From the sequence record MT880872.1: DNA of 64,000 nucleotides, one strand, 5' to 3'. Within the stretch, counting starts at the first letter, position 1, and every line of letters begins with the position of its first letter. The notes under the pieces are model-generated. The model made no database searches. It was given only the letters and a program-made list of their open reading frames with translations, and was not told where the DNA came from. Positions 28,417 to 49,069 of this stretch are shown here, one piece after another. Source of the DNA: Staphylococcus phage PhiSepi-HH3. Position numbers and translations under genes: made by a program.

Positions 28417-31400
28417 ATGACTTTAAATAACCATTTTGCATATACATTTGAGGAGAGACCTACCCCAAAATTATGGCTTTGTAAACCAGATGGAACTAGA
28501 ATTGAAAGAATTGCAGATTTTTCAAAACTTGGTGGAACATTCAAATTCACTAATGTGAACACTTTACATTTTGATTTGCCATTGCAAGTATTTAGTGAAG
28601 ATACTAAGCAAATTGAAAGAAATAAAGTAGTTGATTTAGTAAAAAATAAATACTTAATTGATTATAGATATAACGGATATAGAGATATCTTTGTAATTGA
28701 TGATATTAAAAAATCTGCTAATGACTCTGATTTTATTACATTAAATTTAGACTCAAGAGCGTCTGAATTAAATAAGAAAGCTGCAAATGAAATTGAATTA
28801 TTAGGTTCTACTATCCCTCAAATGATGAACAAAATCTTATCAGTTTATGCTCCACTATGGAAACTTGGACATGTTGATGGAAAAATTATTGATGTTAAAC
28901 GTGAGTTAACTGGTTCTAATACAACTGTTAACGCTCTTATTGATAATATTTGTTCTCTTTTTGACGCAGTTGCTATTTATAACAACATTAATAGAACAAT
29001 AAGCTTCTATCATAAAGACAATGTTGGTACTAATCGTGGTTTAAGAGTTAGGGAAAATAGTTATTTAAAATCATTTGAAGATCAATTTGTATCAAAGGAT
29101 ATCGTTACTAGATTATATCCATTTGGTCAAAGTGGTTTAACAATTCAAAGTGTTAACCCAGCTGGCTCTTCTTATATTGAAGACTTCTCTTATTTCATGT
29201 CACCATTCAAACGTGATAATAACAGAAATGTATTACAACATAGTGATTATATGTCTGATGAATTATGTCACGCTTTGTTAGATTATCAAGAGTTTTATGC
29301 TAGTAAGAAGGATCAAGCTGGTGAATTATCTAAACAATATAGTGCAATTCTTAAAGAGCATTCACAAGAAGACTTCAGATTAAATCAATTAAGTGCTACA
29401 CTTCAACGACTAAATGAGCGTGTTGAATTAGTTAAACCTAAATCAGAATATATTGACTTAGGAACAAAGGTTAAGAATTTCAAAATCACTGTACCTAAAT
29501 CATCATATTATTTAATCATGATTAGAAATGATGGTAGTTTCACTAGAATTAAATTCAATAATAAACAGTATGATATTCCAAGTGGTGAGTGGTTGTATAT
29601 CAAACTTAAAACTGGTAAGTTTAATGACGCTACTAAGTTTGAGAAACAATTAGAATACCCTCTTGAAATATTAAGTGCAAACGCTAATTTAAGAGTGGTA
29701 TATACTCGTTCTTCTGAAGGAGATTATGAAGAAGAAGATACTAAGACAATCGAAGAAAAATACAACTTAGAAAAATATAAAATTTTAGTAAAAGATCAAG
29801 AAAAAGTAGTCGCTTCAATCGAAAGACGATTAAAAGCTTTTGAAGACCAAAAAGCAAGTGTAATACGTTCAATGAATGCAAAGAATTTCTTATCTGAAAA
29901 ACTTTATAATGAACGTGAGTTATATGTTTTTGAGTCTGTTTGGACGGAAGAAAATCATACAGACGCTCAAGAATTATATGATGACGCTGTAAAACAAATG
30001 AAGGAACAAAAGAAAATCAATAGAACGATTACAGTTGATTTAGTTAACTTCATTCAATCGCTTGACCATAAAGATGATTGGGATAAATTAAATGTTGGAG
30101 ATAAAGTTGTTTTCCAAAACAAAATCTTCAATACTAAAATCAAAGCCTATATCACTGAAATGCAATTAGATTTCCAAACTAATCAAGTAAAAATTACTAT
30201 TAGTGATATTTTTGATTACAAAGATTTAGACACAATCATCGCTGAAAAATTAGCCCAAACTACCTCTACTTCTTCTCAAGTTGATTTCCATAAACAACAA
30301 ATTAGAGAGCAAACCGGAAGAATTACAGATATGACTCGTCTTATCGAAGGTGAGTGGGACGCAAATAAAAAGCGTGTGATGGCTGGTAATGAAACAGTTG
30401 ATATTGGTTCACATGGTGTTAAAGTCATTTCAAAAGAGAACCCTAACGAATTCGTAATCATGGTTGGTGGCGTAATTGCTATGACTCGTGATAACGGTGA
30501 AACATTTAAAACTGGTATTACACCAGAAGGTATCAATGCTGAAATGCTTATCGGTAAGATGATCGTTGGTGAAACTTTAACTTTTGAAAATGAGTCTGGT
30601 ACAGTTAAATTCGACAAAGATGGACTTTATGTTAACTCTAAAAACTTCCATTTAGTTTCAAATGATGGAGAAGAAGACTACTTCGATAAATTAAAACGTG
30701 AAATGTCTGAAAACGCTAAACAACAAACAGACAGAATGTTAGAAGAGTATAAAAAAGAAGTTTCACAAACTATTTCTGAAGCTACTGACGTTAGAAACAT
30801 TGTTGATAATGCAGCAGATATTCTTCAAGCAGCTTTTGCTGATGGAGTTATCACAGATGTTGAAAAACGTTTGATTTCTGAAACTCTTGCTCAACTTGAA
30901 AAAGAAAATAGAGAATTCGAAGATAAAATTAACTTAGCTTTAAACCACCCTTACATCACTGAGGAAGATACTATTGAGTTAAATAATTCTATCGTTGAAT
31001 ATAGCTCAATGTATGAAACACTTGTTATTTCTATTAATGAAAGTGTTAGTGACAAGATGATCACACCTCAAGAGTCTGAAGAAATTAATCAAAATATTAT
31101 AAACTTCAGAGAAGAGATCAAAGACATCTTATCATTAGTAGAAGAAATTATTGAACGAACTAAAAATGCTCAACTACAAGCTACTTTAGAAGAAGCAAAA
31201 GATTATACAACAAGAGTTCGTGACGATATTAAAGATGAATTAAAAGACTTAAATAATTCATTTAAATCTTTAAATAGTACAGTTGAAGAGTCATTACAAG
31301 ATAATATTTTTGACGCTGCTGAATTAGAAGCTATTAAAACAGTTGTATTAGTAACTAAATCAGAATATCAAGATATTACAAATAGATATTCTTCAATGTC

Positions 31401-34400
31401 TGCAAATACAGATTTAAAATCGGAAAGTAAATTAGATTTAACAAAATCTTATAAAACTTTAGATACTAGCTTTAATGACTTTGTTAAATATATTGACGAA
31501 ATGACAATGGATAGAATTGCAGATGAGACTGAGAAAGTTAATTACAAAAAGAAATATGATACTTTACAAAAGAACTTATCAGATTATATGAAAAAATATG
31601 ATAACTGTATTTTGGAAATATCTAAAAAGTATTCTAATGACGCAGCAGATAAAGTGTTAGGTGACTTCACAGCTATTGCTACTGAATTACAAAATGATTT
31701 CCAAGATGTTAAAGACAATTGGGCTGAATTCAAGCAAACTACTCTTGAGTCATTTAAAGATGGTATAGTAACTGAGGCAGAAAAAGCTCGACTAAGAGTA
31801 CAATTAGATATGCTTGATCGTGAAAGCATAGATATTGAAGAACGATATAAAAGCTTACTTGCTAACCAATATACTAATACTGATATTAAAAATCGCTTAA
31901 CTGCTTCACGTTCTCCTTACTTATCAGTTCATGCTAGTTTAAGAAAAGTAATTGAACAAATAATTGCTGACGGAAAAGTTGATGAAAGTGAAAAAACATT
32001 AGCTAATAATTCACTTAATACATACAACACAACATTAACTGCTTATTCTAAAACAATTCAAGAAGCTCTAAATACATTATCACAAATCATCTCTTCTGAT
32101 GTAGCAAGTAAAAAAGTTGAAGAATTCAATGGTGTAATAACTACAATTTCTTCAGACGTTGATACAATCAAGAAACAAAGAGATGGTGCAGTAATCACTT
32201 ATTATTATAGCGGTGTACCTACATTATCTAACGATCCAGCTAAAAGTTGGACGACTAATGATTTAAAAGACTTACATATTAAAGATATGTATTTAGACAC
32301 TAAATCTGGTTATGCATATACTTTCACTAAATCTGGTACTAGTTATTCTTGGAAACCACTTACTGACCAAGTTATTGTTAGCTCATTGAAACAAGCAAAA
32401 AATGCACAAGACACAGCGGACAATAAACGTAGAGTTTTTGTAACTCAACCTATTCCTCCTTATGATCAAGGAGATATGTGGACTCAAGGTTCACAAGGAG
32501 ATATTTATGTCTGTGGAACTTCGAGAGCTACTGGCTCATTCGTAAGTAGCGACTGGGTTAAAGCGAGCAAATACACTGACGATACAGTAGCTAAACAGGC
32601 AGCAAAAGATTTAGAAGATTATAAAGTCAAAATGACTAAAGACTTCAAAGATTTAAATGACGGTGTATCTACTTTTAAAACTGAAGTGGTTAAAGATTTC
32701 AAAGATGGAATTGTAACTGAAGCTGAGAAAACTAGATTACGTGTTCAATTAGATATCTTAGATAGAGAAAGTCAAGATATCGAAGAAAGATATAATAGTA
32801 TCTTTAACAGTCAATATGCAGATACTCAAGTTAAAACTTCTATTTCTAACGCACGCTCTACTTATAATAACTCTCTTACTAAGTTAAGAAACACTATTCA
32901 AACCGTGATTGAAGATGGAAAAGTAACGCCTACTGAGAAAACTACTGCTAATCAAACTTTAACCGCATATAATAATGCTTTAACGAGTTATTCAGCTGCT
33001 ATCCAAGAAGCATTAAATAGCATGTCAAAAGTAATTGCTCAAAAAGAAGCTACTAGTCAAGTAAATCAATTCAATGAAGTTATCAAAAATATAAATACAA
33101 ATATTACTGATATTCAAAAACAAGTTGATGGTGCAATTGAAACTTTCTATTACAGTGGAGTACCAACACTTACTAATATCCCCGCTTCGTATTGGACAAC
33201 TGCTAGTAAACGTGAAGCTCATTTAGGTGATTTATATTTAGACACTGCTACTGGTGTTGCTTATCGTTTCTTAAAAAAAGGAACAACTTCCCCTACTTAC
33301 TATTGGTCTCCAATTTCTGATCAAATTATTACAGACGCATTGAATAGAGCAAAAACAGCTCAAGACACCGCCGATGGAAAAAGAAGAGTTTTTGTAAATA
33401 CACCTGTTCCACCATACGACACTGGTGACATGTGGACGCAAGGAGCTAGTGGTGACATCTTAGTTTGTAAAACACCTAAAGCTAAAGGTGGTATTTACTC
33501 AATAAGCGACTGGGTAAAAGCTAGTAAGTATACAGATGATACAGTAGCAAACAGTGCTGTTCAACAATTAAATGAATACAAACGCACTAATAATCTTGAT
33601 ATCGCAGACCTAAAGAGAAAAACTAGTGACTTCGAAAAAACAGTTGTAAATGCATTTGACGATAGAGTCATTAGTATTTCCGAGTCTTCATCTATTAAAG
33701 GACAACTTGCTCTACTTAATCACGAAAAAGATAGATTAACTAGACAATACGAAAATATAATCAGAAATTCTAATCTTGTTGGAGCAGAAAAAACTAAATT
33801 ATCTACTGCATATTCAAATATAAATACTAAGCTTAGTGATTTAAGTACAACTATTAATAGTGCAATTGTTGATAATAAAATTGTTGACGCTGAAAGTAAA
33901 TCTGTAACTTCAAAATTTGAATTGTATAAAGCTTCAGTTAATGAATATCAAATCGCTTTTGATAATGCTCTAAACTCAATTATTAGAGAAATCGCTTCTT
34001 CCCAAGCTAAAGATAGATTAGATGAATGGAAACGTACAGAATTTAGTACAGACTCAGACGGTATTATTGAAAGAGTAGCTGGTGCTAAGTTTGACTCAAA
34101 ATGGACTGATACTTGGAGAAATACAGTTAACCCAGCTATTCAACAAGTGAGTAATATAACATATGGAAGTGAAAACCTATTACTTAATAGCGAAAGTCGA
34201 AGTGACGGTGCTAATACCACGACTCACTCTTTTATAAGATACTACCTGACACGCCCTTTAGAAACAGGGAAAACTTATACTTTAAAAGCTAGTGTTTTAA
34301 CAACTGATGAAAGACAAAGTGGACAAATTAGTGTTTATCCATACTCCCCTAACGGAGCAAGAGAGACAGTAAATATTAAAGACGGTAAAATTACTTATAC

Positions 34401-36462
34401 ATTTACTGCACAAACTGAAAGTACACAATTTCTTATTTATAAAGACGTGGCTGGTCAATCTGATGTAGACTTAAATGTAACAATCGAGAAGGCTATTTTA
34501 GTCGAAGGAAATAAAGTTACAGGGTGGTCTCCAGCACCAGAGGAGACTTCTTCTGCTTTACGAGATTATAATACTCGTATCTCCTCAGCAGAAACATTCA
34601 TTGAGAAAAACAAAGAAAAGATTTCTCAAATTGCTACTAAATCTGATGTTGACGCTTCACTTAGTAAAGTAGCTACTTATGAAACTCAATATAATGTTTC
34701 TAGCGGAACTAACTATCAAATTCCTCTTCAAGAATACAATGGTTCATTCTTTACCGACAACTACACTTATGAAGTTGTAGCTAAAAATAACTCTTTAAGT
34801 TCTAACAACGTAGCAACTGCTATATTCGTAAGTAAAGGTTCAAACAATGGTTATGAATTGGTTGAATTAGACAACATGTCTAAAACTGGTGCTAACCCTA
34901 GATTTGTTTTAGACAGTAAAGGTAGACCTTCTATCTCTACTTTCTCCCCTCAATCTACTACTCAAGATATTTCAGTTATTTACACTAAATATTTAGGTAG
35001 TGCTTCAGCAATCAATACAACTAAATCATTGATTGAGCAAACTGCTAGTTCTATTGAATTACAAGTTAAGAAACTTACTGCTGAGACTGAATACAACAAC
35101 ATATTATTAAATTCAGACTTCTCTTCTGGCTGGGAAGGTTGGATAAATGTTGATCCTCAGTATAGTATTGTTGATAAAAATACTTTTGGTATCACTCTTC
35201 CTGACGCAATCACTAATAAAAATAAGAAATATAATACAGTTAAAATGACATACAATAAAAATACAAATTACCCTTCTGTATTTTCTAATTTTATTTCTGT
35301 TGGAAAAGGTCAAGAGGTAGCTATTGGTGAACATTTAACACTAACTTGTTATGCCTATATCCCTTCTTCATCTAAAGGTAAATTAACTGGTAACATATAT
35401 ATTGAATTCGCTGGTTACTATGAAAAAGACCAAAAATCAAACCCAATGATTGCTAGACATGAAATATTACCTAAAGATTTTGAATATAATAAATGGTTCA
35501 GAATGACAGCTAGTACTGCTATTCCTTCTACTAACTCTGAGGGTAAAAAAATCAATTATATTAGAGCTTGTTTACGTTATGACGGTAAAAATCAAAGCGT
35601 AAATAATAGTGCTATATTCTATTATGCGTTACCTCAATTAGAGCGTGGATCAAAACCAACCGAGTGGTCGTTATCAAGACTTGACGTATTTAGCACTGAA
35701 CAATTGGCAGCTAAGATTGCCTTAAACCCAGAGAGTGTGGATATTATCGCAAGAAATATTGATTTCAATACTGACTCAATGAAGATTTATAATTCTAACG
35801 GTACATTAAACATTTCTGGAGATACTTTAACAATTAGTAACAACAATAGTTCTAATGAAGTAATTATAAATCCAAAAGGTTTTACACTTAAAAAAGATGG
35901 TGTAGTTAAGTTTAAAAATGGACTAGACACAAGCGATTATAGTGTCCAAGCTTATGAACCACAGTTTAGTTCATGGAATAATATTAAAGCTACTGATCCC
36001 GCTGCTAAGAGTAAGTATAATTACATTCGACATATTGAGCCGGGGATGAATGGTTATTACACTATAAATACTGGTGTTTACAATTTTGCAGTACAACACA
36101 AACAACTATTAGAGGTAAATAATACAAAAAATGCGAGAGTTAACAGGTATACATATCTTTACAACAAAAGGTATTTAAAAATACAAATGTCTGCTTCTTC
36201 TCGAGGTAAAAGTAAGCTTTATATAATATTCAAGACAAAAACTGGAGATACTACACTCCATCAAGAAATAGTTAGTTCTAGTTCAATGGTATACCCAGAT
36301 ATAACAATTGACTTACAGGCTAAATTAGGTTATCCGCCTAACAATTTGCCAGACTTTTTTGAATTACAAGCTGGTATTGCCTATGGAGAAAATAATTCTA
36401 TTGATGGTTTCTTTAGAATTAGACGTATGGCAATGACAGATACACCAAATGCGGAGGTTTAA
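28417..36462 (+). CDS. giant tail-associated protein (Tal-like; 2681 aa) with an internal tandem duplication of about 300 aa
   Basis: Ribosome-binding site AAGGAGG. The N-terminal 400 aa resemble a prophage-tail domain. Two homologous units start DFKDGIVTEAEK.RLRVQLD.LDRES.DIEERY and end WVKASKYTDDTVA. The C-terminus is rich in beta-strand residues. Confidence 0.65.
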   Translation: MTLNNHFAYTFEERPTPKLWLCKPDGTRIERIADFSKLGGTFKFTNVNTLHFDLPLQVFSEDTKQIERNKVVDLVKNKYLIDYRYNGYRDIFVIDDIKKSANDSDFITLNLDSRASELNKKAANEIELLGSTIPQMMNKILSVYAPLWKLGHVDGKIIDVKRELTGSNTTVNALIDNICSLFDAVAIYNNINRTISFYHKDNVGTNRGLRVRENSYLKSFEDQFVSKDIVTRLYPFGQSGLTIQSVNPAGSSYIEDFSYFMSPFKRDNNRNVLQHSDYMSDELCHALLDYQEFYASKKDQAGELSKQYSAILKEHSQEDFRLNQLSATLQRLNERVELVKPKSEYIDLGTKVKNFKITVPKSSYYLIMIRNDGSFTRIKFNNKQYDIPSGEWLYIKLKTGKFNDATKFEKQLEYPLEILSANANLRVVYTRSSEGDYEEEDTKTIEEKYNLEKYKILVKDQEKVVASIERRLKAFEDQKASVIRSMNAKNFLSEKLYNERELYVFESVWTEENHTDAQELYDDAVKQMKEQKKINRTITVDLVNFIQSLDHKDDWDKLNVGDKVVFQNKIFNTKIKAYITEMQLDFQTNQVKITISDIFDYKDLDTIIAEKLAQTTSTSSQVDFHKQQIREQTGRITDMTRLIEGEWDANKKRVMAGNETVDIGSHGVKVISKENPNEFVIMVGGVIAMTRDNGETFKTGITPEGINAEMLIGKMIVGETLTFENESGTVKFDKDGLYVNSKNFHLVSNDGEEDYFDKLKREMSENAKQQTDRMLEEYKKEVSQTISEATDVRNIVDNAADILQAAFADGVITDVEKRLISETLAQLEKENREFEDKINLALNHPYITEEDTIELNNSIVEYSSMYETLVISINESVSDKMITPQESEEINQNIINFREEIKDILSLVEEIIERTKNAQLQATLEEAKDYTTRVRDDIKDELKDLNNSFKSLNSTVEESLQDNIFDAAELEAIKTVVLVTKSEYQDITNRYSSMSANTDLKSESKLDLTKSYKTLDTSFNDFVKYIDEMTMDRIADETEKVNYKKKYDTLQKNLSDYMKKYDNCILEISKKYSNDAADKVLGDFTAIATELQNDFQDVKDNWAEFKQTTLESFKDGIVTEAEKARLRVQLDMLDRESIDIEERYKSLLANQYTNTDIKNRLTASRSPYLSVHASLRKVIEQIIADGKVDESEKTLANNSLNTYNTTLTAYSKTIQEALNTLSQIISSDVASKKVEEFNGVITTISSDVDTIKKQRDGAVITYYYSGVPTLSNDPAKSWTTNDLKDLHIKDMYLDTKSGYAYTFTKSGTSYSWKPLTDQVIVSSLKQAKNAQDTADNKRRVFVTQPIPPYDQGDMWTQGSQGDIYVCGTSRATGSFVSSDWVKASKYTDDTVAKQAAKDLEDYKVKMTKDFKDLNDGVSTFKTEVVKDFKDGIVTEAEKTRLRVQLDILDRESQDIEERYNSIFNSQYADTQVKTSISNARSTYNNSLTKLRNTIQTVIEDGKVTPTEKTTANQTLTAYNNALTSYSAAIQEALNSMSKVIAQKEATSQVNQFNEVIKNINTNITDIQKQVDGAIETFYYSGVPTLTNIPASYWTTASKREAHLGDLYLDTATGVAYRFLKKGTTSPTYYWSPISDQIITDALNRAKTAQDTADGKRRVFVNTPVPPYDTGDMWTQGASGDILVCKTPKAKGGIYSISDWVKASKYTDDTVANSAVQQLNEYKRTNNLDIADLKRKTSDFEKTVVNAFDDRVISISESSSIKGQLALLNHEKDRLTRQYENIIRNSNLVGAEKTKLSTAYSNINTKLSDLSTTINSAIVDNKIVDAESKSVTSKFELYKASVNEYQIAFDNALNSIIREIASSQAKDRLDEWKRTEFSTDSDGIIERVAGAKFDSKWTDTWRNTVNPAIQQVSNITYGSENLLLNSESRSDGANTTTHSFIRYYLTRPLETGKTYTLKASVLTTDERQSGQISVYPYSPNGARETVNIKDGKITYTFTAQTESTQFLIYKDVAGQSDVDLNVTIEKAILVEGNKVTGWSPAPEETSSALRDYNTRISSAETFIEKNKEKISQIATKSDVDASLSKVATYETQYNVSSGTNYQIPLQEYNGSFFTDNYTYEVVAKNNSLSSNNVATAIFVSKGSNNGYELVELDNMSKTGANPRFVLDSKGRPSISTFSPQSTTQDISVIYTKYLGSASAINTTKSLIEQTASSIELQVKKLTAETEYNNILLNSDFSSGWEGWINVDPQYSIVDKNTFGITLPDAITNKNKKYNTVKMTYNKNTNYPSVFSNFISVGKGQEVAIGEHLTLTCYAYIPSSSKGKLTGNIYIEFAGYYEKDQKSNPMIARHEILPKDFEYNKWFRMTASTAIPSTNSEGKKINYIRACLRYDGKNQSVNNSAIFYYALPQLERGSKPTEWSLSRLDVFSTEQLAAKIALNPESVDIIARNIDFNTDSMKIYNSNGTLNISGDTLTISNNNSSNEVIINPKGFTLKKDGVVKFKNGLDTSDYSVQAYEPQFSSWNNIKATDPAAKSKYNYIRHIEPGMNGYYTINTGVYNFAVQHKQLLEVNNTKNARVNRYTYLYNKRYLKIQMSASSRGKSKLYIIFKTKTGDTTLHQEIVSSSSMVYPDITIDLQAKLGYPPNNLPDFFELQAGIAYGENNSIDGFFRIRRMAMTDTPNAEV

Positions 36463-39753: not shown

Positions 39754-40218
39754 GTGGTGATAACCATTAGAAAGCTAAATGAGTTAAGAGAACTTCTCAA
39801 GAAAAACTTATTACAGTTGAATATAGCCACAATTGGTTTTGACGTATTAATCATAAGTACAAGTATAATTGGTATGATCAAATCAATAGAATGGATCAAT
39901 AAGAACACTAGTGAATTAAAAAATGCTTCTGTATTCTACTATAATATCTCTGAAGTTGTTGATATACAGATAATGGGATGGTTGCTTTTAGTATCATGTT
40001 TAATATTATTAATTTCAGTATTCATTAGAACACCAAATGAATTCAGACTTATGATTTTAGGTGGCTTGGTATCAGGCTTAGTTTATTTTGCATTTGGCAT
40101 TCTTGCAGTGGATAACGCTTCTTTATACGCAACATATTACAATAATCTTATCAATGGATGGGTTCAAATATTAATAGCAGGAATGGGTGCAATTGGCATA
40201 TGGAAAACGAAAGTATAA
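39754..40218 (+). CDS. polytopic membrane protein (about 4 transmembrane segments) at the head of the lysis cassette; the start codon is uncertain
   Basis: The hydrophobic segments are IATIGFDVLIISTSIIGMI, WLLLVSCLILLISVFI, LMILGGLVSGLVYFAFGILAV and WVQILIAGMGAIGIW. Confidence 0.35.
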   Translation: MVITIRKLNELRELLKKNLLQLNIATIGFDVLIISTSIIGMIKSIEWINKNTSELKNASVFYYNISEVVDIQIMGWLLLVSCLILLISVFIRTPNEFRLMILGGLVSGLVYFAFGILAVDNASLYATYYNNLINGWVQILIAGMGAIGIWKTKV

Positions 40219-40712
40219 TCGAGGTGCAATTATCTGGTATTAAGGAAGATGTAACAAAACTACAAGAAGATCATGACAAAACAAAAGAGCGTCAAGATAA
40301 ACTTGACACCAAAATTGAAAAAACTTTAGATAAAATGCAAAAGTATCAAGATATGAACAATGAAAAGTTTTTACAGTTAAGTATAAACAATGCTCAAATG
40401 TTAGAGATGACTAAAAATGTAGAAAAAAATACTGAAAGAACTGCGGATATCATGGAGAAAATGGTTGAAGAAGATAAAGAAACAAAGGCTTCAATTGATA
40501 AAAAGTTTGCTGAAGTCGATGACGATATTAGTGACTTGAAATCAGAAATTCATACTAAAATCAATTCTATTGAGACTACTAGTATTAGTGAAGATGGAGA
40601 GTCGAGAATATCTGGTAAGACTTGGGGTACAATTTTGATTGCCCTTTTTGCACTTATGGAAACAATGATTAAGGTAGTAGCTCCCCTACTAGCTCCATTA
40701 ATCACAAAATAA
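40200..40712 (+). CDS. XhlA-like lysis-associated protein (coiled coil with a C-terminal transmembrane segment)
   Basis: Translation begins MENESIIEVQLSGIKEDVTKLQEDHDK. A heptad-like helical region is followed by the C-terminal transmembrane segment WGTILIALFALMETMIKVVAPLLAPLI. It sits directly upstream of the holin gene, as xhlA does in Bacillus PBSX. The start is uncertain (ATG at 40158 or 40200). Confidence 0.45.
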   Translation: MENESIIEVQLSGIKEDVTKLQEDHDKTKERQDKLDTKIEKTLDKMQKYQDMNNEKFLQLSINNAQMLEMTKNVEKNTERTADIMEKMVEEDKETKASIDKKFAEVDDDISDLKSEIHTKINSIETTSISEDGESRISGKTWGTILIALFALMETMIKVVAPLLAPLITK

Positions 40713-40733: not shown

Positions 40734-41063
40734 ATGATTAAACTTGATAAAGGATCACTTGTTAGAGGTGTTTTAGGTTTACTTGCTTTCTTAAACGTAG
40801 CTTTAGAATTGTCTGGTCATAACCCTATTCCTATTGATGAAGGTGCAATTAATACATTTATTACTCTAGCCTTCTTAGGTGTTACAACTATTCTTGGTTA
40901 TTATAAGAACTTCAATGTAACTCAAGAGGCACATGTTGCTCAAGCTAACTTAAACGCTTTGAAACAACAAAAGAAATACGCACAAAACACAGGTGGAGTA
41001 ATCTCAGCAGCTATGGCTAATGAAGATAGTCTTCCTAACAAACATTTAGATCAAACTATTTAA
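40734..41063 (+). CDS. holin (two transmembrane segments; XhlB/BhlB-like)
   Basis: 109 aa with the ribosome-binding site AAGGAGATAAA. The transmembrane segments are GVLGLLAFLNVALEL and FITLAFLGVTTILGYY, followed by a charged C-terminus. Confidence 0.6.
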   Translation: MIKLDKGSLVRGVLGLLAFLNVALELSGHNPIPIDEGAINTFITLAFLGVTTILGYYKNFNVTQEAHVAQANLNALKQQKKYAQNTGGVISAAMANEDSLPNKHLDQTI

Positions 41064-41114
41064 TCTAAGCCGAGTTATCTATTAACTCGGTTTTAATTAA
41101 TAAGGAGTGCAATA

Positions 41115-43508
41115 ATGAGAAGAAATTTAATTAATAATTATCGTTTCTTAGAATTCCCACAAGAGACTTCTATTGAAATTAAACAAGGTGACTTTACTCC
41201 TATCTCTGTTAAATTGGACTCTACTGAGATGATTAAAGATGATGGTAAAGACGCAAAAGTTATTTTAATCAACACTGATAATGAAAAAGTATTTGAAACT
41301 AGCGTACCAGCGAAAAATAGAATTATTGAGTTTGTTATCAATAAGAACTTACCTAAAGGAAGATACTTTTTAGAAATCGTTTATAATCAAATGAAGTTTC
41401 CTTCTAGAGATTATAAAACTATCATTATTAATGGATCAGCTTCATTAGGTAGTTTAAAAGAGATTAATATCATTAGTTCAGATGATATTAAAAATAGATT
41501 TATTTCTGAAGCTAAAAAAGAATTATCAGCGGATATTGATCAACTAGTTAGTGAGAAACTTAATAAGTATGTCATTGAAAATCAAGAAGATTTAAAAGGT
41601 CAATCGATATCTATTGCTAACCACGAATTCGATGAAAAAGGTAATCTAAATATTACTTTTAGCGATCAAACATTTATTCAGATACCAAAAGGAAAAGATG
41701 GCCACAACGGTGAAGATGGTCGAGATGGCTTGAACGGAAGAGATGGTCAATCTGTAACCACTATCACTGAACGTGGAATTAGTAATAATAGCAGTGGTAT
41801 CTATGTTCGTACATACAAAGTTGATCATGAAGGTATTAAACAAGATTTAATCAGTGAAACTTTCGTGTCTGATGGAAAAGATGGTAAAGATGGAACGTCA
41901 GTTGAAATCGACCATACTGAAGAAATTGACAACGACCTCAAAATATACTTTACAAATGGCAAATCTTTATTCTTACCAAAGACAAAAGTTGTAGAAACTA
42001 ATACCTCAGCCAGCACAGAAATCTCACAACTTAAAGATTTAGTAGGTGTGTTTATTGGTGATAGTATTACTGAAGTTAACTTACGAACAGAAAAGAACTA
42101 CCATCAATTTATTGCTGATCGTACTGGGCTTAAAAATATTAACTTAGGTCATAGTGGTACAGGTTATCAAGATAGAAAAAATGCTTTCACTGAAATAAAA
42201 GAGGCACCCGATTTCATCACCGTGTTCTTGGGAACAAATGACTATGGTTTAGTTGGTGGAAAAACTAGAGAGTTAGGAACTGCGAAAGAACATAAAGCTG
42301 GAACAGTTGCGGGTAGTATTTATTATACATTATTACAACTTTCAAACTCATTCCCTACTACGCCTATTGGTGTAATGACTCCTATTCCTAGAGCTGAATG
42401 TAACCCGTTCAAAGAAGTTGCTAACTCTAAGGGATATACTTTAGGCCAATTAACTGAAGTAATTAAAGAATTGGCTAGTTCATTCTCATTCCCTGTTTTA
42501 GATTTGTATAATGAAAGTAATCTAAGAGTTTGGAATGAAACTGTTAATAAGACTTTCTTTAGTCTTTCAAATGGTTCATACGATGGTTTACACCCTAATG
42601 CTAAAGGTCATGAGTATTTATCTTATATGATTGAAAGATTTATTGAAGATAAATTAGTTGTGGGTACACGATTTGATTACGAACATGTTGATACTACTCC
42701 AACAAGTCTAGGTAATGATGTCTTTAAAAAAGCTATTAAACCAGAAGGTATGTTTTGGAATACAACCCAAAGCCTCATTATTAATGTTACTGCTAGTGAC
42801 ATTGATTTAGATAAGTTTAAATTGCTGAAAATAAAATATAAAAACTATAAAATTATTGATCCTAGTGGTATATTAAGTGGTTCTCCTTATTGGTACACTT
42901 TACCTAACTACGCTGATAAAGATAAGTTTAATAGAACTTCAGATGTCACTGAGTTTGTTAAAGGTTTTGAAGTTATGGATATTACTGAAAGTCGTGGTAA
43001 TGAATATATGCCAGATTATGTAGAATTCATATACACTCTCAAAACTAATACAGATGTTGTAGCGGATATTAATAAAGATTACGTCTTGAAGTCTGCTGCA
43101 CAACCGACTACACCTTCTACTTCAACACCTACTTCTCCAACAACAAATACAAAAGAGAAAGTAACACCAGTTGATAATGGTGATGGAACATTTACCGCTA
43201 CTATCACTCCAACTAAGATTTCTTGGAAGCAAGATCAAAGCTTCATGATTAACACAGATGGAGAACAATTAGATTTAACTGGTAAGCAAGTTAAAAAAGT
43301 AGAGTCTGGTGATTATTCAATTCTAAACCCAAATACAACTGCTTCTAACTACTTCTTCTGGTATTCTGTTCCTACTTCTACTGAAGGTACTATGTTCAAT
43401 AAAACACCAGACATTAATAAATTCGTTGCTGGCTTAACTGTTGATAAAACTGAAGCTGATGGAAGAATAGTATATAAACTTGTACCAGTAAAAATTACAT
43501 ACAAATAA
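41115..43508 (+). CDS. SGNH/GDSL-family hydrolase with collagen-like Gly-X-Y repeats, a Thr/Pro linker and two C-terminal repeat modules
   Basis: SGNH blocks: GDSITE (block I, catalytic Ser), LGHSGTGY (block II), FLGTNDYG (block III), DGLHPNAKGH (block V, DxxH). The collagen-like run is GKDGHNGEDGRDGLNGRDGQ (7 G-X-Y triplets), followed later by DGKDGKDG. The linker reads PTTPSTSTPTSPTTNT. Two modules of about 45 aa, each with a W-Y-T/S-x-P core, follow it. Confidence 0.6.
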   Translation: MRRNLINNYRFLEFPQETSIEIKQGDFTPISVKLDSTEMIKDDGKDAKVILINTDNEKVFETSVPAKNRIIEFVINKNLPKGRYFLEIVYNQMKFPSRDYKTIIINGSASLGSLKEINIISSDDIKNRFISEAKKELSADIDQLVSEKLNKYVIENQEDLKGQSISIANHEFDEKGNLNITFSDQTFIQIPKGKDGHNGEDGRDGLNGRDGQSVTTITERGISNNSSGIYVRTYKVDHEGIKQDLISETFVSDGKDGKDGTSVEIDHTEEIDNDLKIYFTNGKSLFLPKTKVVETNTSASTEISQLKDLVGVFIGDSITEVNLRTEKNYHQFIADRTGLKNINLGHSGTGYQDRKNAFTEIKEAPDFITVFLGTNDYGLVGGKTRELGTAKEHKAGTVAGSIYYTLLQLSNSFPTTPIGVMTPIPRAECNPFKEVANSKGYTLGQLTEVIKELASSFSFPVLDLYNESNLRVWNETVNKTFFSLSNGSYDGLHPNAKGHEYLSYMIERFIEDKLVVGTRFDYEHVDTTPTSLGNDVFKKAIKPEGMFWNTTQSLIINVTASDIDLDKFKLLKIKYKNYKIIDPSGILSGSPYWYTLPNYADKDKFNRTSDVTEFVKGFEVMDITESRGNEYMPDYVEFIYTLKTNTDVVADINKDYVLKSAAQPTTPSTSTPTSPTTNTKEKVTPVDNGDGTFTATITPTKISWKQDQSFMINTDGEQLDLTGKQVKKVESGDYSILNPNTTASNYFFWYSVPTSTEGTMFNKTPDINKFVAGLTVDKTEADGRIVYKLVPVKITYK

Positions 43509-43523
43509 CATATAAAAATCTCA

Positions 43524-43553
43524 AGAACTAGTTAACGCTAGTTCTTTTTTTTA
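43524..43553 (+). terminator. rho-independent terminator between the SGNH hydrolase gene and the endolysin gene
   Basis: The stem is agaactag-ttaacg-ctagttct. A T9 run follows. Confidence 0.6.
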
Positions 43554-43584
43554 TTACATAAATTTAACTAAGGAGTGTTGTTCT

Positions 43585-45087
43585 TTGAAAACTCAAAAAC
43601 AAGTTGCTGAAAGATTACGTGCTTACGTTAACGGTACTGTTGATAGTCCATATCGAGTTAGAGATTGGACTCATTATGATGATGATTTTGGAACAATGGA
43701 ACCGGGCTGTATTGATGTTGATCGTAGCTTCCATGCTCAATGTATGGATCTCGTAATCGACTATTGTTTATGGATATCTGATAATCAATTTAGAATTCGT
43801 GGTAATGCAAAACAAGCTATCGACAACCCTCTTCCAAAAGGCTGGAAAATTATTCGTAATGAAAGAGCCACAGTGCCGAAACAGGGCTGGATAGGTGTTA
43901 ATACAAGCACATATTATGGTCATATTTGGCTCGTTGATAAAGGTGCTACTCAAATGACTATGCCTGTTATTGAGCAAAACTGGAATTCGTTAGCGAACTT
44001 AAAACCAAAACGTAGACTTGATTACTACTATGGTTGTACTCACTTTATCGTTCCGCCAATTAGTTCAAATAATGCTATTGTGAGAGCTGCTAAGAACGTT
44101 TTACCTAGTCCTAAACCTATGAAAGTATTACTTGTAGCTGGACATGGTAAAGGTGCTTATTCAAACGATCCTGGTGTAGTAAATACTGAATTAGATATTT
44201 GTGAAAGAGACTTTGTTAGACAAAAAATCGTTCCTAATGTTGCTAAGTATCTTAAACAAGCAGAAGTAAATGTTCAGTTGTATGGTGGTTCTACTATGAA
44301 CCAAGACATGTACCAAGACACTAGATATGGTGTTAATCTTGGAGATACTAAGAGATATGGAATGTACTGGGCTGCTCGACAAGGTTTCGATCAAATTGTT
44401 GAATTCCATTTGGACGCAGCTAGTCCACAAGCTTCTGGTGGTCATGTAATTATTGATAATAACGTATATCAAGATAAGATTGATGAAAGACTTCATAAAG
44501 TTATTGATAAATACGTTGGTACAATTCGAGGTATAGACAAGCGTGATAACTTATTGAATGCTAACGTATCTGCCGACCTAAACCAAAATTATAGATTAGT
44601 TGAATTAGGTTTCATTACTAATAAAACTGATGTAAGAAATATCGAGAGACATCTTGAAGCTTTCACTAAAGAAATGGCTGAAGCTATTGTTGGTAATGTT
44701 ATCGGTAATAACTTAGGTTCTCAAGATATAAAGCCTTCTACTAAAAAAGGTACTAAATCTAAACCTTCTAAGAAAAAACCTGAACCTCAACAAATTGAGT
44801 GGAAGTGGTCTGGCACTTTCTACCCTAATACATCGATCAAAGTTAGAAGAAACTGGGGGCTTAACGGTGAAGAAGTTCCTAGAAAATTCTGGCTTAATGG
44901 AGAAAAAGACTGGGTATATATCCATTCAGTTATCAAAGATACTAAGAATAAATTATGGTGGGCTAAGATGACTTATCCTCAAAACAAGGAAATTAAATAC
45001 TTCTATTGTGCTTTAGGTAAAATCACTGATAAAGAAGCCAAAATTAAAAAAGAAAAAGAATTATATGGTAAAATTAAATGGAAGTAA
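43585..45087 (+). CDS. endolysin: CHAP + N-acetylmuramoyl-L-alanine amidase (Amidase_3) + SH3b-like cell-wall-binding domain
   Basis: TTG start with the ribosome-binding site TAAGGAGTG. The CHAP Cys/His blocks are FHAQCMDLV and YYGHIWLV. The Amidase_3 blocks are KVLLVAGHGKG...E...EFHLDA...GGHVII...LVELGFITN. A Lys-rich linker leads to a C-terminal beta-rich domain. Confidence 0.75.
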   Translation: MKTQKQVAERLRAYVNGTVDSPYRVRDWTHYDDDFGTMEPGCIDVDRSFHAQCMDLVIDYCLWISDNQFRIRGNAKQAIDNPLPKGWKIIRNERATVPKQGWIGVNTSTYYGHIWLVDKGATQMTMPVIEQNWNSLANLKPKRRLDYYYGCTHFIVPPISSNNAIVRAAKNVLPSPKPMKVLLVAGHGKGAYSNDPGVVNTELDICERDFVRQKIVPNVAKYLKQAEVNVQLYGGSTMNQDMYQDTRYGVNLGDTKRYGMYWAARQGFDQIVEFHLDAASPQASGGHVIIDNNVYQDKIDERLHKVIDKYVGTIRGIDKRDNLLNANVSADLNQNYRLVELGFITNKTDVRNIERHLEAFTKEMAEAIVGNVIGNNLGSQDIKPSTKKGTKSKPSKKKPEPQQIEWKWSGTFYPNTSIKVRRNWGLNGEEVPRKFWLNGEKDWVYIHSVIKDTKNKLWWAKMTYPQNKEIKYFYCALGKITDKEAKIKKEKELYGKIKWK

Positions 45088-46057: not shown

Positions 46058-47704
46058 CTATGACTTATCTTCCACCAAATATTCAACTGGAATTTTACTA
46101 AGTATTAAATCTTTTGACAACTGTTCATCGTATTTAATAATAATCAGTTTCACATCATTTTGATCACATAGTTGTTGCTTACGCTTATCTCTCACCTGTT
46201 GTTTCTTTAGACTTTCTTCTCCTCCCCAATGTTCAACTGGCTTATAGTGTTGAACACCATTATATTCAAAACCAATTTTCAATTCCGGTACATAAATATC
46301 TATTTCTAAACCTTCAAGAAAGTTTGGTCTACAATGACGTTCGCATTCATAATTTTCAAAGATATCTTCAACAATTTTAAACATCATAGTTTCAGATATC
46401 CAACCTTCTCCTATTTTAGCTACACCATATTCTTCTCTTAGAATATTTTCAGCTTCTTTTCCATAGATATCGTTATCTAAGTCGTTTTCTATTTGAACTT
46501 GATCAATATACCAACCATGATACTTTCTAAATTTACTATCATTACTTGAGTATATGCGATTAGGAGTTGTTTTATTACATCTAAAGCATATATTATCTTT
46601 GAATTGAATGTCATCAACTATGTTAGTATTATCATCATTTAGATATGCTTTAATAACTGGAGGTAAATATACTTTTACATTTAGTTTATTTACTTTTAAT
46701 TTATGTAAAGCTTTTTTAGTACAACTACACATATATGGCTCTTGATCGAATGAGTCTCTAAATGCAAAGAATTTTGTTTCATGTTCTAATGGATAATAAG
46801 TTATATATGCTCTATTGTCATCATTTAATACAAAATCAAAACTATTTCCATAGCTATAATTTAATATTCTCTTAATTCTATTTTCGGCATGTGATACAAA
46901 TTCTCTATATTCAATTAAATATTTTTGGTATAGTTTCTCTTCTAAATAAATTTCTTTATTTTTCCAATTCTTAATTAAAAAGAATATGTTTTCAATGTCA
47001 TCTCTATGTTCAAGATATTCCATATCGCTAGTTACTTTTATACTATATTTATTATCTTCAAATTCAAAGTTATCGAAACGCTTCATTAAATTGATTGCAG
47101 TCTCGAAATACTTCGATTTACTTTTAGATATTGTAATTCTTAATAAATCTTTTTCTTTATTCAATTCGTCTAATTCATCTATGTTAGGTTTGTATTGATT
47201 AGGGTTATCTAACAAAAGTCTGTCTAATGCTCCATAATATTTACCATTTATCTCAACTTCCTCAAAACGATCATTCAAAGGATGTAGCTCTGGTCTATTA
47301 TCTACAAGAACCTCTTCAATTATATTATGGATATGATTTTGAGTATCTCTGCCTCTCTCAATGATATTAATAATTTCTTTAGAGTCCTTTATAGTTCCAA
47401 TACTGATATAATTTGTGAAACTTTTATTGTTGTCACCATAAGTTATTCTAATAGGCTTATTTCCTAATGTTTCATCTAATTCTATTTGAATAACATCTTT
47501 AAAGGGAATTTTATATGCGAAATCTTCTACTTGATTTACCATATAAATTGAATTAATTGATAAATAAAATGAACAGTATATATTTCTGTATGTGCCATCG
47601 AAGGTATACTCGAAGTTACAAACAGTTTTATAATAAATTTCAACATTGCCAAACTTTTTTTCAAGATATTCATCGTTCATTTTTAAATCAGAATAAAAGT
47701 CCAT
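46058..47704 (-). CDS. 548-aa protein with a C-terminal Vsr/DUF559-like PD-(D/E)xK endonuclease domain and a novel N-terminal region of about 400 aa that contains a Cys cluster
   Basis: Ribosome-binding site AGGAGAAATAGG. The C-terminus (EGWISETMMFKIVEDIF...RPNFLEGLEIDIYVPELKIGFEYNGVQHY...VRDKRKQQL...VKLIIIKYDE) matches the DUF559 pattern of D, a hydrophobic residue, P-E-x-K and then I/L-E-x-D/N-G-x-Q-H. Cysteines occur at CSCTKK...CFRCNK. Confidence 0.55.
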   Translation of the reverse strand: MDFYSDLKMNDEYLEKKFGNVEIYYKTVCNFEYTFDGTYRNIYCSFYLSINSIYMVNQVEDFAYKIPFKDVIQIELDETLGNKPIRITYGDNNKSFTNYISIGTIKDSKEIINIIERGRDTQNHIHNIIEEVLVDNRPELHPLNDRFEEVEINGKYYGALDRLLLDNPNQYKPNIDELDELNKEKDLLRITISKSKSKYFETAINLMKRFDNFEFEDNKYSIKVTSDMEYLEHRDDIENIFFLIKNWKNKEIYLEEKLYQKYLIEYREFVSHAENRIKRILNYSYGNSFDFVLNDDNRAYITYYPLEHETKFFAFRDSFDQEPYMCSCTKKALHKLKVNKLNVKVYLPPVIKAYLNDDNTNIVDDIQFKDNICFRCNKTTPNRIYSSNDSKFRKYHGWYIDQVQIENDLDNDIYGKEAENILREEYGVAKIGEGWISETMMFKIVEDIFENYECERHCRPNFLEGLEIDIYVPELKIGFEYNGVQHYKPVEHWGGEESLKKQQVRDKRKQQLCDQNDVKLIIIKYDEQLSKDLILSKIPVEYLVEDKS

Positions 47705-47846: not shown

Positions 47847-48452
47847 TTATTTAGAATTAGAAGTACGTCTAAATGCTAATAATGAACCAGCTGCTAATAA
47901 TACTGAAGCGATGATTGTTGCTAAACCAGAGTTAGATTGTTCGCCTGTTTCTGGTAAAGCTTTTGTTGTTTGAGCTTCTTTAGTTTGAGTTGATTGTGTA
48001 TTGTTTTCTTGAGTAGAAACATCGTTATCAGTTGTAGCAGTAGTAGTGTTGTTATTTGTTGCTGCTTGATTATTGTCAGTACTTTGTGTATTGTTTGGTG
48101 CGTCAATTGTTAATACATTGTTTGCGTCTCTAGGAGTCTGAGCTTCAATACGTCCATCTTTATAAACTTTTGCAGCACCTACACCGTTGTCTTTTTCACC
48201 AGAAAAAATAACAGTATAATAGTCACCATTGTCTTTTACTCCATTGTCTTTATCAGTAACGCCACCACCATGTCCTCCAATTGATACAGAACCCGCTTCA
48301 GTATATTTTGAACCAATAGCATTTTTAGCATAATCTCTAACATTTGAGTCATTTACATAATCAGCTGCATGTGCATTATGTGTAGCTCCTACACCTGTAA
48401 ATAATAATGCTCCCGCTAATGTAGTTGTTGCTAAAACTTTAGATTTTTTCAT
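47847..48452 (-). CDS. LPXTG (LPETG) cell-wall-anchored surface protein with a signal peptide and a Thr/Asn/Gln-rich stalk
   Basis: The start was reset to MKKSKVLATTTLAG..., which has the ribosome-binding site GGGAGGAAAATAAAA. The motif LPETG is followed by a hydrophobic segment and RRTSNSK, the sortase sorting signal. The track ORF extends spuriously upstream. Confidence 0.7.
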   Translation of the reverse strand: MKKSKVLATTTLAGALLFTGVGATHNAHAADYVNDSNVRDYAKNAIGSKYTEAGSVSIGGHGGGVTDKDNGVKDNGDYYTVIFSGEKDNGVGAAKVYKDGRIEAQTPRDANNVLTIDAPNNTQSTDNNQAATNNNTTTATTDNDVSTQENNTQSTQTKEAQTTKALPETGEQSNSGLATIIASVLLAAGSLLAFRRTSNSK

Positions 48453-48603
48453 TTTTATTTTCCTCCCAAAAAATAATATGTAATCACGGTTTAAATATTC
48501 GACACGTGTATATCTAATGTTAAACATCAGAATGGACATATAATGTCCTTGTCTAAACAATTTAGATTTATTTTAATTGTCCAATGTAACTCAATGAGAA
48601 TAA

Positions 48604-48757: not shown

Positions 48758-49069
48758 TTAAGTACAGTTCCACCAAGTTCCAGTCGCGCATCCTCCAGCT
48801 AATACTATCCCTATTCCAAAAATGAAAGATCCCAAAATAGTTCCTATAACTGGAAATGTTTCTGCTGGAACCTCAATAATATTTAAGTGCTTTAGAATAA
48901 GTAAACCAATACTTTGGACTGTAATAGCAATAAGCAATGCATAAAACATTTTGTTACTCTTCTGAACGTACATATCTCTAAATCCACCAGCTAAACAAAA
49001 TCTTGTTCTCTGCATTACAAATCCTAGCAATATGCCAACGACTAGTCCGCTTATAATTGTCCACACCAT
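48758..49069 (-). CDS. YeeE/YedE-family (DUF395) membrane protein, short form of 103 aa; possibly partial
   Basis: The N-terminal signature of the family is present: GxxxGxxFGxxxQRxRFCxxGGFRD. The C-terminal LAGGCATG loop is present. Confidence 0.45.
   Translation of the reverse strand: MVWTIISGLVVGILLGFVMQRTRFCLAGGFRDMYVQKSNKMFYALLIAITVQSIGLLILKHLNIIEVPAETFPVIGTILGSFIFGIGIVLAGGCATGTWWNCT

Follow-up and report, generated by a model that had tools for sequence, protein, structure and literature searches.

The window analysed here is a stretch of 64,000 nucleotides from Staphylococcus phage PhiSepi-HH3 (record MT880872.1), in which a gene for a 797-residue protein with an SGNH/GDSL esterase domain lies between a holin gene and an endolysin gene, as had been noticed from the sequence (Table 1). 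The window itself matches the known Staphylococcus phage SPbeta-like at 100% identity, and the product is 100% identical to gp060 of that phage, for which the annotations "GDSL-like lipase/acylhydrolase" and "virion structural protein" already exist; in RP62A the ortholog is SERP1649. The family phrog_13015 ('virion structural protein') matches residues 145-797, and the PHROG neighbours of the protein are tail-fibre or virion proteins. The original prediction regarded neither of its proposed roles as standard in annotated Staphylococcus phage lysis cassettes. The view that the arrangement is non-standard or unannotated had to be given up, since the record of the identical phage already annotates the gene and SPbeta-like Staphylococcus prophages keep to this arrangement throughout.

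Table 1. Features of the esterase locus and their coordinates in the window
Feature	Position (nt)	Strand	Residues	Evidence and remarks
Holin	40734..41063	+		Upstream neighbour; Pfam Holin_SPP1, E 1.6e-23; phrog_263 holin
Stable hairpin, then UUUUAAUU	41067..41093	+		Between holin stop and esterase gene; direct reading
Ribosome-binding site AAGGAGTG	41102..41109	+		Direct reading; ATG 5 nt downstream
Gene of the putative fibre with SGNH esterase head	41115..43508	+	797 aa	ORF list
N-terminal beta-sandwich domain, putative virion anchor	41115..41459	+	1-115	Invariant part of the locus
Long alpha-helix, probable trimeric coiled-coil neck	41478..41579	+	122-155	AF2 secondary structure
Putative stalk	41607..41984	+	165-290	Hairpin units, Gly-X-Y runs, beta module
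'xIxFSDxxxxxIPKG' beta-hairpin units			165-192 and 263-290	Part of the stalk
Gly-X-Y run 1	41691-41753	+	193-213	7 triplets; regex
Beta module of the stalk			214-253	
Gly-X-Y run 2	41874-41900	+	254-262	3 triplets; regex
SGNH/GDSL esterase domain	42048..42620	+	312-502	Pfam, PDB 3dc7, family profile
C-terminal module 1, beta-sandwich/barrel, putative ligand-binding	42696..43049	+	528-645	
Thr/Pro/Ser-rich flexible linker	43095..43163	+	661-683	Sequence; AF2 pLDDT <50 at model residues 147-165
C-terminal module 2	43164..43505	+	684-797	Same evidence as module 1
Terminator-like hairpin and T-run	43523..43554	+		Gap between esterase gene and endolysin; terminator scan
Endolysin	43585..45087	+		Downstream neighbour; CHAP + Amidase_3 + SH3b_P2 (Pfam); phrog_489

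The esterase gene and the endolysin gene start behind the same AAGGAGTG octamer. RNA folding gives the hairpin upstream of the esterase gene a stability of -14.8 kcal/mol (z -6.2), which was equalled in 0 of 200 shuffles, and the downstream one -11.4 kcal/mol (z -5.2). In the reference SPbeta-like phage record, an IS3 element sits in the gap between the esterase and endolysin genes. Upstream, a 184-aa coiled-coil/TM protein was considered as a homolog of DUF2951 or XhlA, an assignment that turned out to be without sequence support. The 797-residue protein itself has no hydrophobic segment, signal peptide or TM segment (maximum KD19 0.95), which leaves no means of Sec export or membrane anchoring, and a Pfam search detected no muralytic domain in it.

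The esterase head and its C-terminal modules

The assignment of the head to the SGNH family is firm. PF13472 (Lipase_GDSL_2) covers residues 313-500 with 66.1 bits (cutoff 32.9; E 7e-18), and PF00657 (Lipase_GDSL) reaches 58.1 bits (cutoff 23.6; E 1.8e-15). All the blocks quoted in the original prediction were located, namely GDS at 315-317 (Ser317), GHSGTG at 345-350 (Gly348), GTND at 373-376 (Asn375) and DGLHP at 490-494 (Asp490 and His493), and they are at least 90% conserved in an alignment of 30 family members. The domain aligns with PDB 3dc7 at E 1e-12 with its catalytic blocks, the Ser, Asp and His included, in register; the family profile matches the same structure at 3e-22 and the SGNH domain of the 80alpha Tal protein gp59 (residues 340-629) at 4e-8. 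The nearest solved structures are uncharacterised proteins, acetyl-xylan esterases matching weakly and in part. No study assaying the function, activity or substrate of a Staphylococcus phage SGNH protein turned up in the literature, and the activity of the Tal SGNH domain of 80alpha and phi11 is not established (PMC7048315, PMC4876445).

Across the four types of anchor and the three phage groups in which the head occurs, all the catalytic residues have been kept. This speaks for retained catalysis, and the head looks like an active esterase. There is thus very little chance that it is a catalytically inert SGNH fold serving as the binding head of a receptor-binding protein, or that the gene is a host-benefiting 'lipase' moron of lysogenic conversion. 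The historical annotation as lipase/acylhydrolase, the moron-like bracketing by hairpins and the distance of about 5 kb to the prophage end, with a SesI/SasX-type cargo gene nearby, would all suit such readings. However, they have to face not only the conservation of every catalytic residue but also the presence of the gene in strictly lytic Kayviruses, and they leave the fibre architecture of the N-terminal part unexplained. As for a secreted lipase acting in lysogenic conversion, it was rejected on account of these lytic carriers and of the missing signal peptide, since a lysogen could not secrete the protein.

Behind the head come two homologous modules separated by the Thr/Pro linker, which is present where it had been described. 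The duplication is clear, residues 528-628 aligning with 684-783 at 33% identity (E 2e-19). The span of this alignment means that each module comprises about 105-118 aa; the initial estimate of about 45 aa was thus too small, although the duplication itself was rightly recognised. No solved or predicted structural homolog of the modules was found outside their own family, and when 1.84 billion cluster representatives were scanned with phmmer, only 26 proteins were retrieved at E<=1e-3. The full-length ones among these matches belong to this Staphylococcus-phage family, the weaker ones being short partial matches to long repetitive proteins.

An invariant N-terminal part and exchangeable heads

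The N-terminal domain is predicted by AF2 to contain 7-8 strands over residues 19-112, with a pLDDT of about 63-79. It matches phrog_6487 (E 1.2e-9) and is 38% identical (E 4e-5) to the N-terminus of P0098, a protein of S. epidermidis siphovirus prophages, the conserved motifs being IKQGD, AKV.L, IN..LP.G.Y.LEI and FPSD. A homolog search with the N-terminal 192 aa returned 7 close fragments and nothing more. The Ig-like anchor BppU_N (PF10651) gave no Pfam match in this domain, and two profile comparisons with hhalign reached E values of 0.12 and 0.22, the value staying at about 0.2 even with a 15-sequence profile, which does not demonstrate homology.

The 7+3 collagen-like triplets announced for the region in front of the catalytic blocks are found there, and none of 20000 composition-preserving shuffles produced a run of seven. 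Pfam Collagen (PF01391) has no match at E<=0.01 in the window allele, whereas it is present on allelic proteins with 28-42 triplets. Taken alone, runs of 7 and 3 triplets are short for a collagen helix to be stable. Interleaved with the beta-hairpin units, the Gly-X-Y runs may form a thin, probably trimeric stalk.

Comparison with sister SPbeta-like prophages reveals where the protein is divided. At the same slot, the first 195 codons are kept at 93-95% nucleotide identity and everything after codon 195 is replaced up to the stop codon. With the allele that carries a CE4 polysaccharide deacetylase, homology stops at nt 41701, where the collagen begins, and homology to the sister loci resumes at nt 43503. 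The heads found at this slot are SGNH, CE4 or, in P0046, none at all, this allele being an enzyme-free collagen-only fibre with a tail-fibre-type C-terminus. The stalk also varies in length among the sister alleles, which carry 5-42 Gly-X-Y triplets and as many as 4 hairpin units. No relationship was found between the C-terminus of the CE4 variant and the modules described above. Such a pattern of swapping is what would be expected of a host-range fibre locus. The alternation of SGNH and CE4 heads further suggests that the target is an acylated glycan, for which O-acetylated peptidoglycan, a teichoic acid and PIA/PNAG come into consideration.

The same head also occurs on other anchors. In the S. 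aureus prophage protein P0055, a BppU_N N-terminus of the FibU type (FibU being a baseplate fibre of phage 80alpha) carries it at 44% identity, followed by three modules, and the gene lies precisely at the FibU slot, with Hyd in front of it and the holin and endolysin genes behind. P0098 combines its homologous N-terminus with the same SGNH head and one module. It also lies at the FibU slot, and the next genes encode a Holin_SPP1 holin and a CHAP-Amidase_3-SH3b_P2 endolysin, so that P0098 and these two make up the three types of gene seen in the window; at this locus (L008), the holin and the endolysin are 34 and 41% identical to those of the window, respectively. NCBIfam has no model matching the 797-residue protein or its relatives P0055, P0098 and P0075.

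A third setting is provided by the Kayvirus 'lipase/acylhydrolase domain protein' (for example Stab21 g038c, Maine gp034, G15, S25-4; PHROG 13015), which shares the SGNH domain and two modules at 52-58% identity and is annotated as a virion structural protein, its gene being flanked by terminators. It differs from the window protein by a short Ig-like N-terminus of the major-tail-protein type, devoid of collagen, and by its stand-alone gene in the left arm, away from the lysis genes. The esterase head, with its one to three orphan, putatively binding modules, thus behaves as a portable cassette, found on four anchors in three phage groups (SPbeta-like phages, siphoviruses and Kayvirus myoviruses). 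More generally, SGNH domains are widespread on Staphylococcus phage baseplates, as seen with Tal, the fibres at the FibU slot and the Kayvirus protein. The Tal proteins (gp59 of 80alpha, Gp44 of phi11) resemble the window protein by a C-terminal SGNH domain on a baseplate protein. Tal is, however, a central tail-tip protein with a gp27-like N-terminal domain, lacking collagen stalk and C-terminal tandem modules, and its sequence relationship to the window protein is distant.

A putative baseplate fibre next to the lysis genes

On balance, the gene most likely encodes a collagen-stalked tail or baseplate fibre tipped with an SGNH esterase, the counterpart of FibU in 80alpha. FibU (gp68; PDB 6V8I) is a non-essential upper baseplate fibre whose gene stands just before those of the holin and lysin, and it consists of an Ig-like N-terminal domain, a helical segment and collagen at residues 178-208 before its head (PMC7048315). 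Both proteins thus follow the order beta-sandwich, helix, collagen from about residue 180-190 and distal head, both genes adjoin holin and endolysin, and the S. aureus FibU allele P0055 bears the very head and modules discussed here. The differences are also clear. The N-terminal domain of the window protein shows no detectable sequence similarity to BppU_N, the FibU head is a non-enzymatic knob of roughly 180 aa, and the 80alpha gene lies upstream of the holin whereas the window gene lies downstream. The phages themselves are not alike, a 127-kb SPbeta-like siphovirus on one side and a 44-kb Dubowvirus on the other.

In such a fibre, the beta-sandwich and the helical neck would attach the protein to the virion, the stalk would carry the esterase as its distal head, and the tandem modules would probably keep this head attached to a glycopolymer of the cell surface. 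As the phage adsorbs, the head could then free a wall or matrix polymer of its ester-linked acyl groups, candidate targets being O-acetyl groups on peptidoglycan MurNAc, teichoic acid esters, and O-acyl groups of PIA/PNAG or capsule. Removal of these groups may unmask or remodel the receptor, as other phage SGNH fibre enzymes do on acetylated polysaccharides. Gp63.1 of E. coli phage G7C (PDB 4QNL) is reportedly an SGNH esterase tailspike or fibre which deacetylates its polysaccharide receptor. The deacetylase of Acinetobacter phage Aristophanes is likewise reported to be a virion esterase acting on an acetylated polysaccharide receptor (PMC8471582). The likeness to these two enzymes is one of concept, a virion-borne SGNH esterase modifying a surface glycan and not cleaving it. 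The term 'depolymerase' used in the original prediction was ill chosen, since an esterase removes substituents and leaves the chains uncut.

The neighbourhood of the lysis genes initially led to another interpretation, in which the free cytoplasmic protein would pass through the holin lesions and remove peptidoglycan O-acetyl groups (the OatA modification) or teichoic acid esters, making the wall a better substrate for the endolysin. Peptidoglycan de-acetylating members do exist in both the SGNH and CE4 families, and a protein without signal peptide would, like endolysins, depend on the holin. Besides the position between holin and endolysin and the octamer shared with the latter, this role could explain why SERP1649 is co-upregulated with the prophage holin in RP62A (PMC11265418). 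We nevertheless regard it as improbable. An anchor, a helical neck and a collagen stalk are needless for a soluble helper enzyme, and an enzyme-free fibre fills the same slot in sister prophages. Homologous heads are fused to a FibU/BppU baseplate anchor upstream of the holin in siphoviruses, and the Kayvirus homolog stands away from the lysis genes. A terminator-like hairpin separates the gene from the endolysin. When membership in the lysis cassette is considered, only the position fits, the protein having no membrane segment, signal peptide or muralytic domain; apart from gene position, nothing speaks for the lead reading of the original prediction.

The virion fibre, which that prediction had held as its alternative, is favoured by the comparisons made here, through the anchor-helix-collagen order, the exchangeable head, the FibU/BppU-anchored relatives and the lack of signal peptide or TM segment. 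The gene would then owe its place beside the lysis genes to an inherited gene order. Staphylococcus siphoviruses have their FibU-type fibre gene at the end of the structural genes, just ahead of holin and endolysin, the order of holin and fibre being reversed in the window. Stab21 g038c, the Kayvirus homolog, has been detected in particle preparations (PMC7077315), which is weak evidence since DNA polymerase, ribonucleotide reductase and other non-structural proteins are also present in this particle proteome. A literature search found no induction or virion data on the SPbeta-like phage. The bracketing hairpins and the co-induction of SERP1649 with the holin are equally compatible with a function at the time of lysis.

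The two roles could also be combined. Influenza C HEF and coronavirus HE are receptor-destroying esterases, and by analogy the virion fibre could be accompanied by an excess of free trimers which, once set free by lysis, clear debris and neighbouring cells of the acylated receptor and so limit futile re-adsorption of the progeny. Both roles are in keeping with a fibre architecture and with late expression linked to lysis, and virion esterases modifying acetylated polysaccharide receptors are known in other phages, but the proposal adds an assumption to the fibre hypothesis and we give it a slim chance. A broader version, in which the two modules would be an undescribed Staphylococcus-specific cell-wall-glycopolymer-binding domain and the esterase part of a receptor-editing fibre, perhaps free at lysis too, appears improbable to us as a whole. 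Expression of the fibre gene as an insulated unit within the lysis cassette suggests that free protein might also act at lysis, where it might de-O-acetylate the wall, potentiating the endolysin, or destroy receptors on debris. This would amount to the recruitment of a structural fibre gene for the lysis programme.

Considered as a tail or baseplate fibre gene, the locus is ordinary in that it is already annotated and resembles known phage fibres, and existing annotation and analogy largely account for it. Knowledge of the substrate would clarify the host-range determinants of the SPbeta-like prophages that carry sasX/sesI, and it might also lead to enzymes that modify biofilms or the wall and to a new cell-wall-binding domain.

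The gene and its SGNH domain

The reading frame of gp060 was confirmed in the ORF list of the window, as that of a 797-aa protein, and a strong ribosome-binding site (AAGGAGTG) is read 5 nt before its ATG. The gene recurs with 100% identity in phage SPbeta-like (KT429160 / NC_029119), where it is gp060, and in SPbeta-like 2 (MT955612). Assemblies of S. epidermidis, S. capitis, S. haemolyticus and S. aureus encode identical 797-aa proteins. The identical records already carry the labels "GDSL-like lipase/acylhydrolase", "virion structural protein" and "SGNH/GDSL hydrolase family protein", and the PHROGs family phrog_13015, "virion structural protein", spans residues 145-797. The gene is therefore new neither as a sequence nor as an annotation, and it fits a known, already annotated kind, the virion-associated SGNH esterase fibre. 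In NC_029119, an IS3-family element with three ORFs lies between the gp060 gene and the endolysin gene. The corresponding 76-bp gap of the window is intact, with its terminator hairpin kept, so the window holds a different, uninterrupted copy.

By Pfam, residues 312-502 make up a GDSL/SGNH domain (66.1 bits, against a gathering score of 32.9). All four catalytic blocks of the original prediction were recovered, namely GDS (Ser317), GHSGTG (Gly348), GTND (Asn375) and DGLHP (Asp490, His493); they line up with the blocks of 3dc7, an SGNH protein of solved structure, and are at least 90% conserved in the family alignment (n=30). Judged by this profile and the complete set of blocks, gp060 belongs to the SGNH superfamily. 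In profile comparisons, the closest solved structures are uncharacterised proteins and acetyl-xylan esterases give weak, partial matches only. A clear match was obtained to the SGNH domain of the 80alpha baseplate protein Tal, likewise uncharacterised; literature searches turned up no substrate for any Staphylococcus phage SGNH domain.

Putative anchor, stalk and C-terminal modules

The AlphaFold2 model of residues 1-300 is of low confidence overall (pLDDT 52). In it, residues 19-112 form a beta-sandwich of moderate confidence and residues 122-155 a long helix, and short beta units flank the Gly-X-Y runs on both sides. These runs were found as predicted, with seven triplets (193-213) and three triplets (254-262), and a seven-triplet run was reached in none of 20000 shuffles of the protein. 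The stalk alternates collagen runs with a repeated hairpin unit, "xIxFSDGxxxxIPKG", and its alleles carry up to four hairpin units and 5-42 triplets. Pfam Collagen detects the long alleles, so that by sequence the collagen assignment is firm for these and borderline for the short window allele. No hydrophobic segment, and thus no export signal, was found in gp060.

The predicted C-terminal duplication is real (residues 528-628 against 684-783: 33% identity, E 2e-19), with modules of about 105-118 aa each, larger than the 45 aa or so first proposed. Residues 515-797 are confidently modelled (pLDDT 84) as two separate beta-sandwich/barrel modules, connected by a disordered Thr/Pro/Ser linker. 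In BFVD, they match significantly only the ortholog from Kayvirus. An exhaustive phmmer search of 1.84 billion cluster representatives matched 26 proteins, the strong matches being Staphylococcus-phage family members and the remainder short partial ones. The modules, present in one, two or three copies across the family, thus appear to be orphans.

Slot, head exchange and neighbouring genes

Between the same holin and endolysin, sister SPbeta-like prophages always have a gene that opens with the same ~195 codons and continues with another distal part. This part is a CE4 polysaccharide deacetylase head in allele P0075 (locus L005). In P0046 (locus L006), the gene encodes a collagen-only fibre whose C-terminus is of the tail-fibre type, and an extra 175-aa ORF comes after it. 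Against the window, nucleotide identity is 93-95% as far as nt 41701 for L005 and nt 41884 for L006. It is lost beyond, and is back at 97% from nt 43503, which precedes the stop codon by 5 nt. The second collagen run of the window and the last one of the long P0046 allele share a 24-nt exact repeat, which encodes DGKDGKDG. This link between distant stalk positions suggests that stalks are shortened when collagen-coding repeats recombine, which would account for the length polymorphism. The 175-aa ORF (phrog_2981, unknown function), missing from the window, could encode a fibre chaperone or a separate tip protein.

The same head is found on other anchors. In the S. aureus prophage protein P0055, the N-terminus is clearly a homolog of 80alpha FibU (BppU_N), and an SGNH head 44% identical to that of gp060 comes next, with three modules. 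P0055 occupies the exact FibU position (RBP, FibL, DUF2977, XkdX, DUF2951, Hyd, P0055, holin, endolysin). In FibU, an Ig-like N-terminal domain leads into collagen (residues 178-208) and then into a knob. FibU builds the upper ring of the baseplate as well as thin fibres, and can be dispensed with under laboratory conditions (PMC7048315). The gp060 N-terminus gives no BppU_N signal, by Pfam or profile–profile comparison, and gp060, although apparently FibU-like in working, cannot therefore be assigned to the BppU family. The N-terminal domain of gp060 and that of P0098 are homologous (38% identity, E 4e-5; phrog_6487 for both). P0098 is common in siphovirus prophages of S. epidermidis, S. capitis and S. 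caprae, and bears the same SGNH head and one module. It lies in the FibU slot, ahead of a holin (Holin_SPP1) and an endolysin (CHAP-Amidase_3-SH3b_P2) that share 34% and 41% identity with their window counterparts. From these likenesses, the three-gene block of the window reads as the familiar fibre–holin–endolysin end of a Staphylococcus late operon, with its first two genes swapped. Four anchor types thus bear the head: SPbeta-like, P0098-type, BppU/FibU-type and a Kayvirus Ig-like domain. In Kayvirus, the homologous gene stands by itself between terminators, apart from the lysis genes. In phage Maine, it has annotated terminators on either side and adjoins tRNA-Met and metallophosphatase genes. 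Only some Kayviruses carry it (Stab21 for example, but not Stab20, Stab22 or Stab23).

Upstream of the holin, the 'exonuclease' label of the 184-aa ORF (via phrog_11953) is probably a mis-annotation. Its architecture is like that of XhlA/DUF2951 holin-associated proteins, and no XhlA/DUF2951 sequence match was found. The YomG_N-type giant protein appears, by eye in translation, to contain a long internal duplication, DGIVTEAEKxRLRVQLDxLDRESxDIEERY and RRVFVxxPxPPYDxGDMWTQG occurring twice each. The C-terminal ~90 aa of the 548-aa ORF resemble, by eye, a DUF559/Vsr-type endonuclease motif. Similarity to phage records stops near 48.8-48.9 kb, which is therefore the prophage right end, the rest being presumably host chromosome.

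Coordinates of the features discussed (window unless another record is named)
Feature	Coordinates	Strand	Remark
YomG_N-type giant protein	28417..36462	+	2681 aa
154-aa ORF	39754..40218	+	multi-TM; labelled 'tail protein'; overlaps 184-aa ORF
184-aa ORF	40158..40712	+	coiled-coil with C-terminal TM segment
Holin	40734..41063		Holin_SPP1
gp060 gene	41115..43508	+	797 aa
24-nt repeat	41870-41893; L006 7470-7493		DGKDGKDG
Gap before endolysin	43509-43584		76 bp
Endolysin	43585..45087		CHAP-Amidase_3-SH3b_P2
548-aa ORF	46058..47704	-	without annotation
Last cargo gene	47847..48560	-	LPXTG surface protein, SesI/SasX type
Prophage right end	~48775-48930		
IS3-family element	NC_029119 71295-72432 (L001 segment 16466-17603)	-	three ORFs
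175-aa ORF	L006 7662-8189		phrog_2981
Maine homolog	L002 segment 6549-8519		

Fibre tip or lysis helper

The best reading of the sequence is that gp060 is a peripheral baseplate or tail fibre, probably trimeric, with an esterase tip. The original prediction had put first a lysis helper acting with the holin and endolysin; both neighbours are indeed as it described, and this position was its sole basis. The RP62A counterpart SERP1649, which we take as the ortholog by name and location, is co-induced with the holin. Two RNA hairpins insulate the gp060 gene, one after the holin (-14.8 kcal/mol) and one with a T-run before the endolysin (-11.4 kcal/mol); both are significantly stable, as none of 200 shuffles folds as well in either case. 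The co-induction and the hairpins would suit a lysis role just as well. The sole particle proteome with a gp060 homolog also has many non-structural proteins, and lends weak support to a fibre. A lysis helper, the less likely reading, is nevertheless hard to reconcile with the anchor–stalk architecture, with an allele free of enzyme in this slot, and with the settings in which siphoviruses and Kayviruses carry homologous heads.

As a fibre, gp060 would be kept on a cell-surface glycopolymer by its tandem modules, and its esterase tip would strip ester-linked acyl groups during adsorption. The alternation of SGNH with CE4 deacetylase heads suggests an acetylated glycan as target. Candidates are O-acetylated peptidoglycan, teichoic-acid esters, and PIA/PNAG or capsule. 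The portable head cassette common to three phage groups and the orphan tandem modules are of modest interest, as is the SGNH/CE4/no-enzyme polymorphism at one fixed slot.
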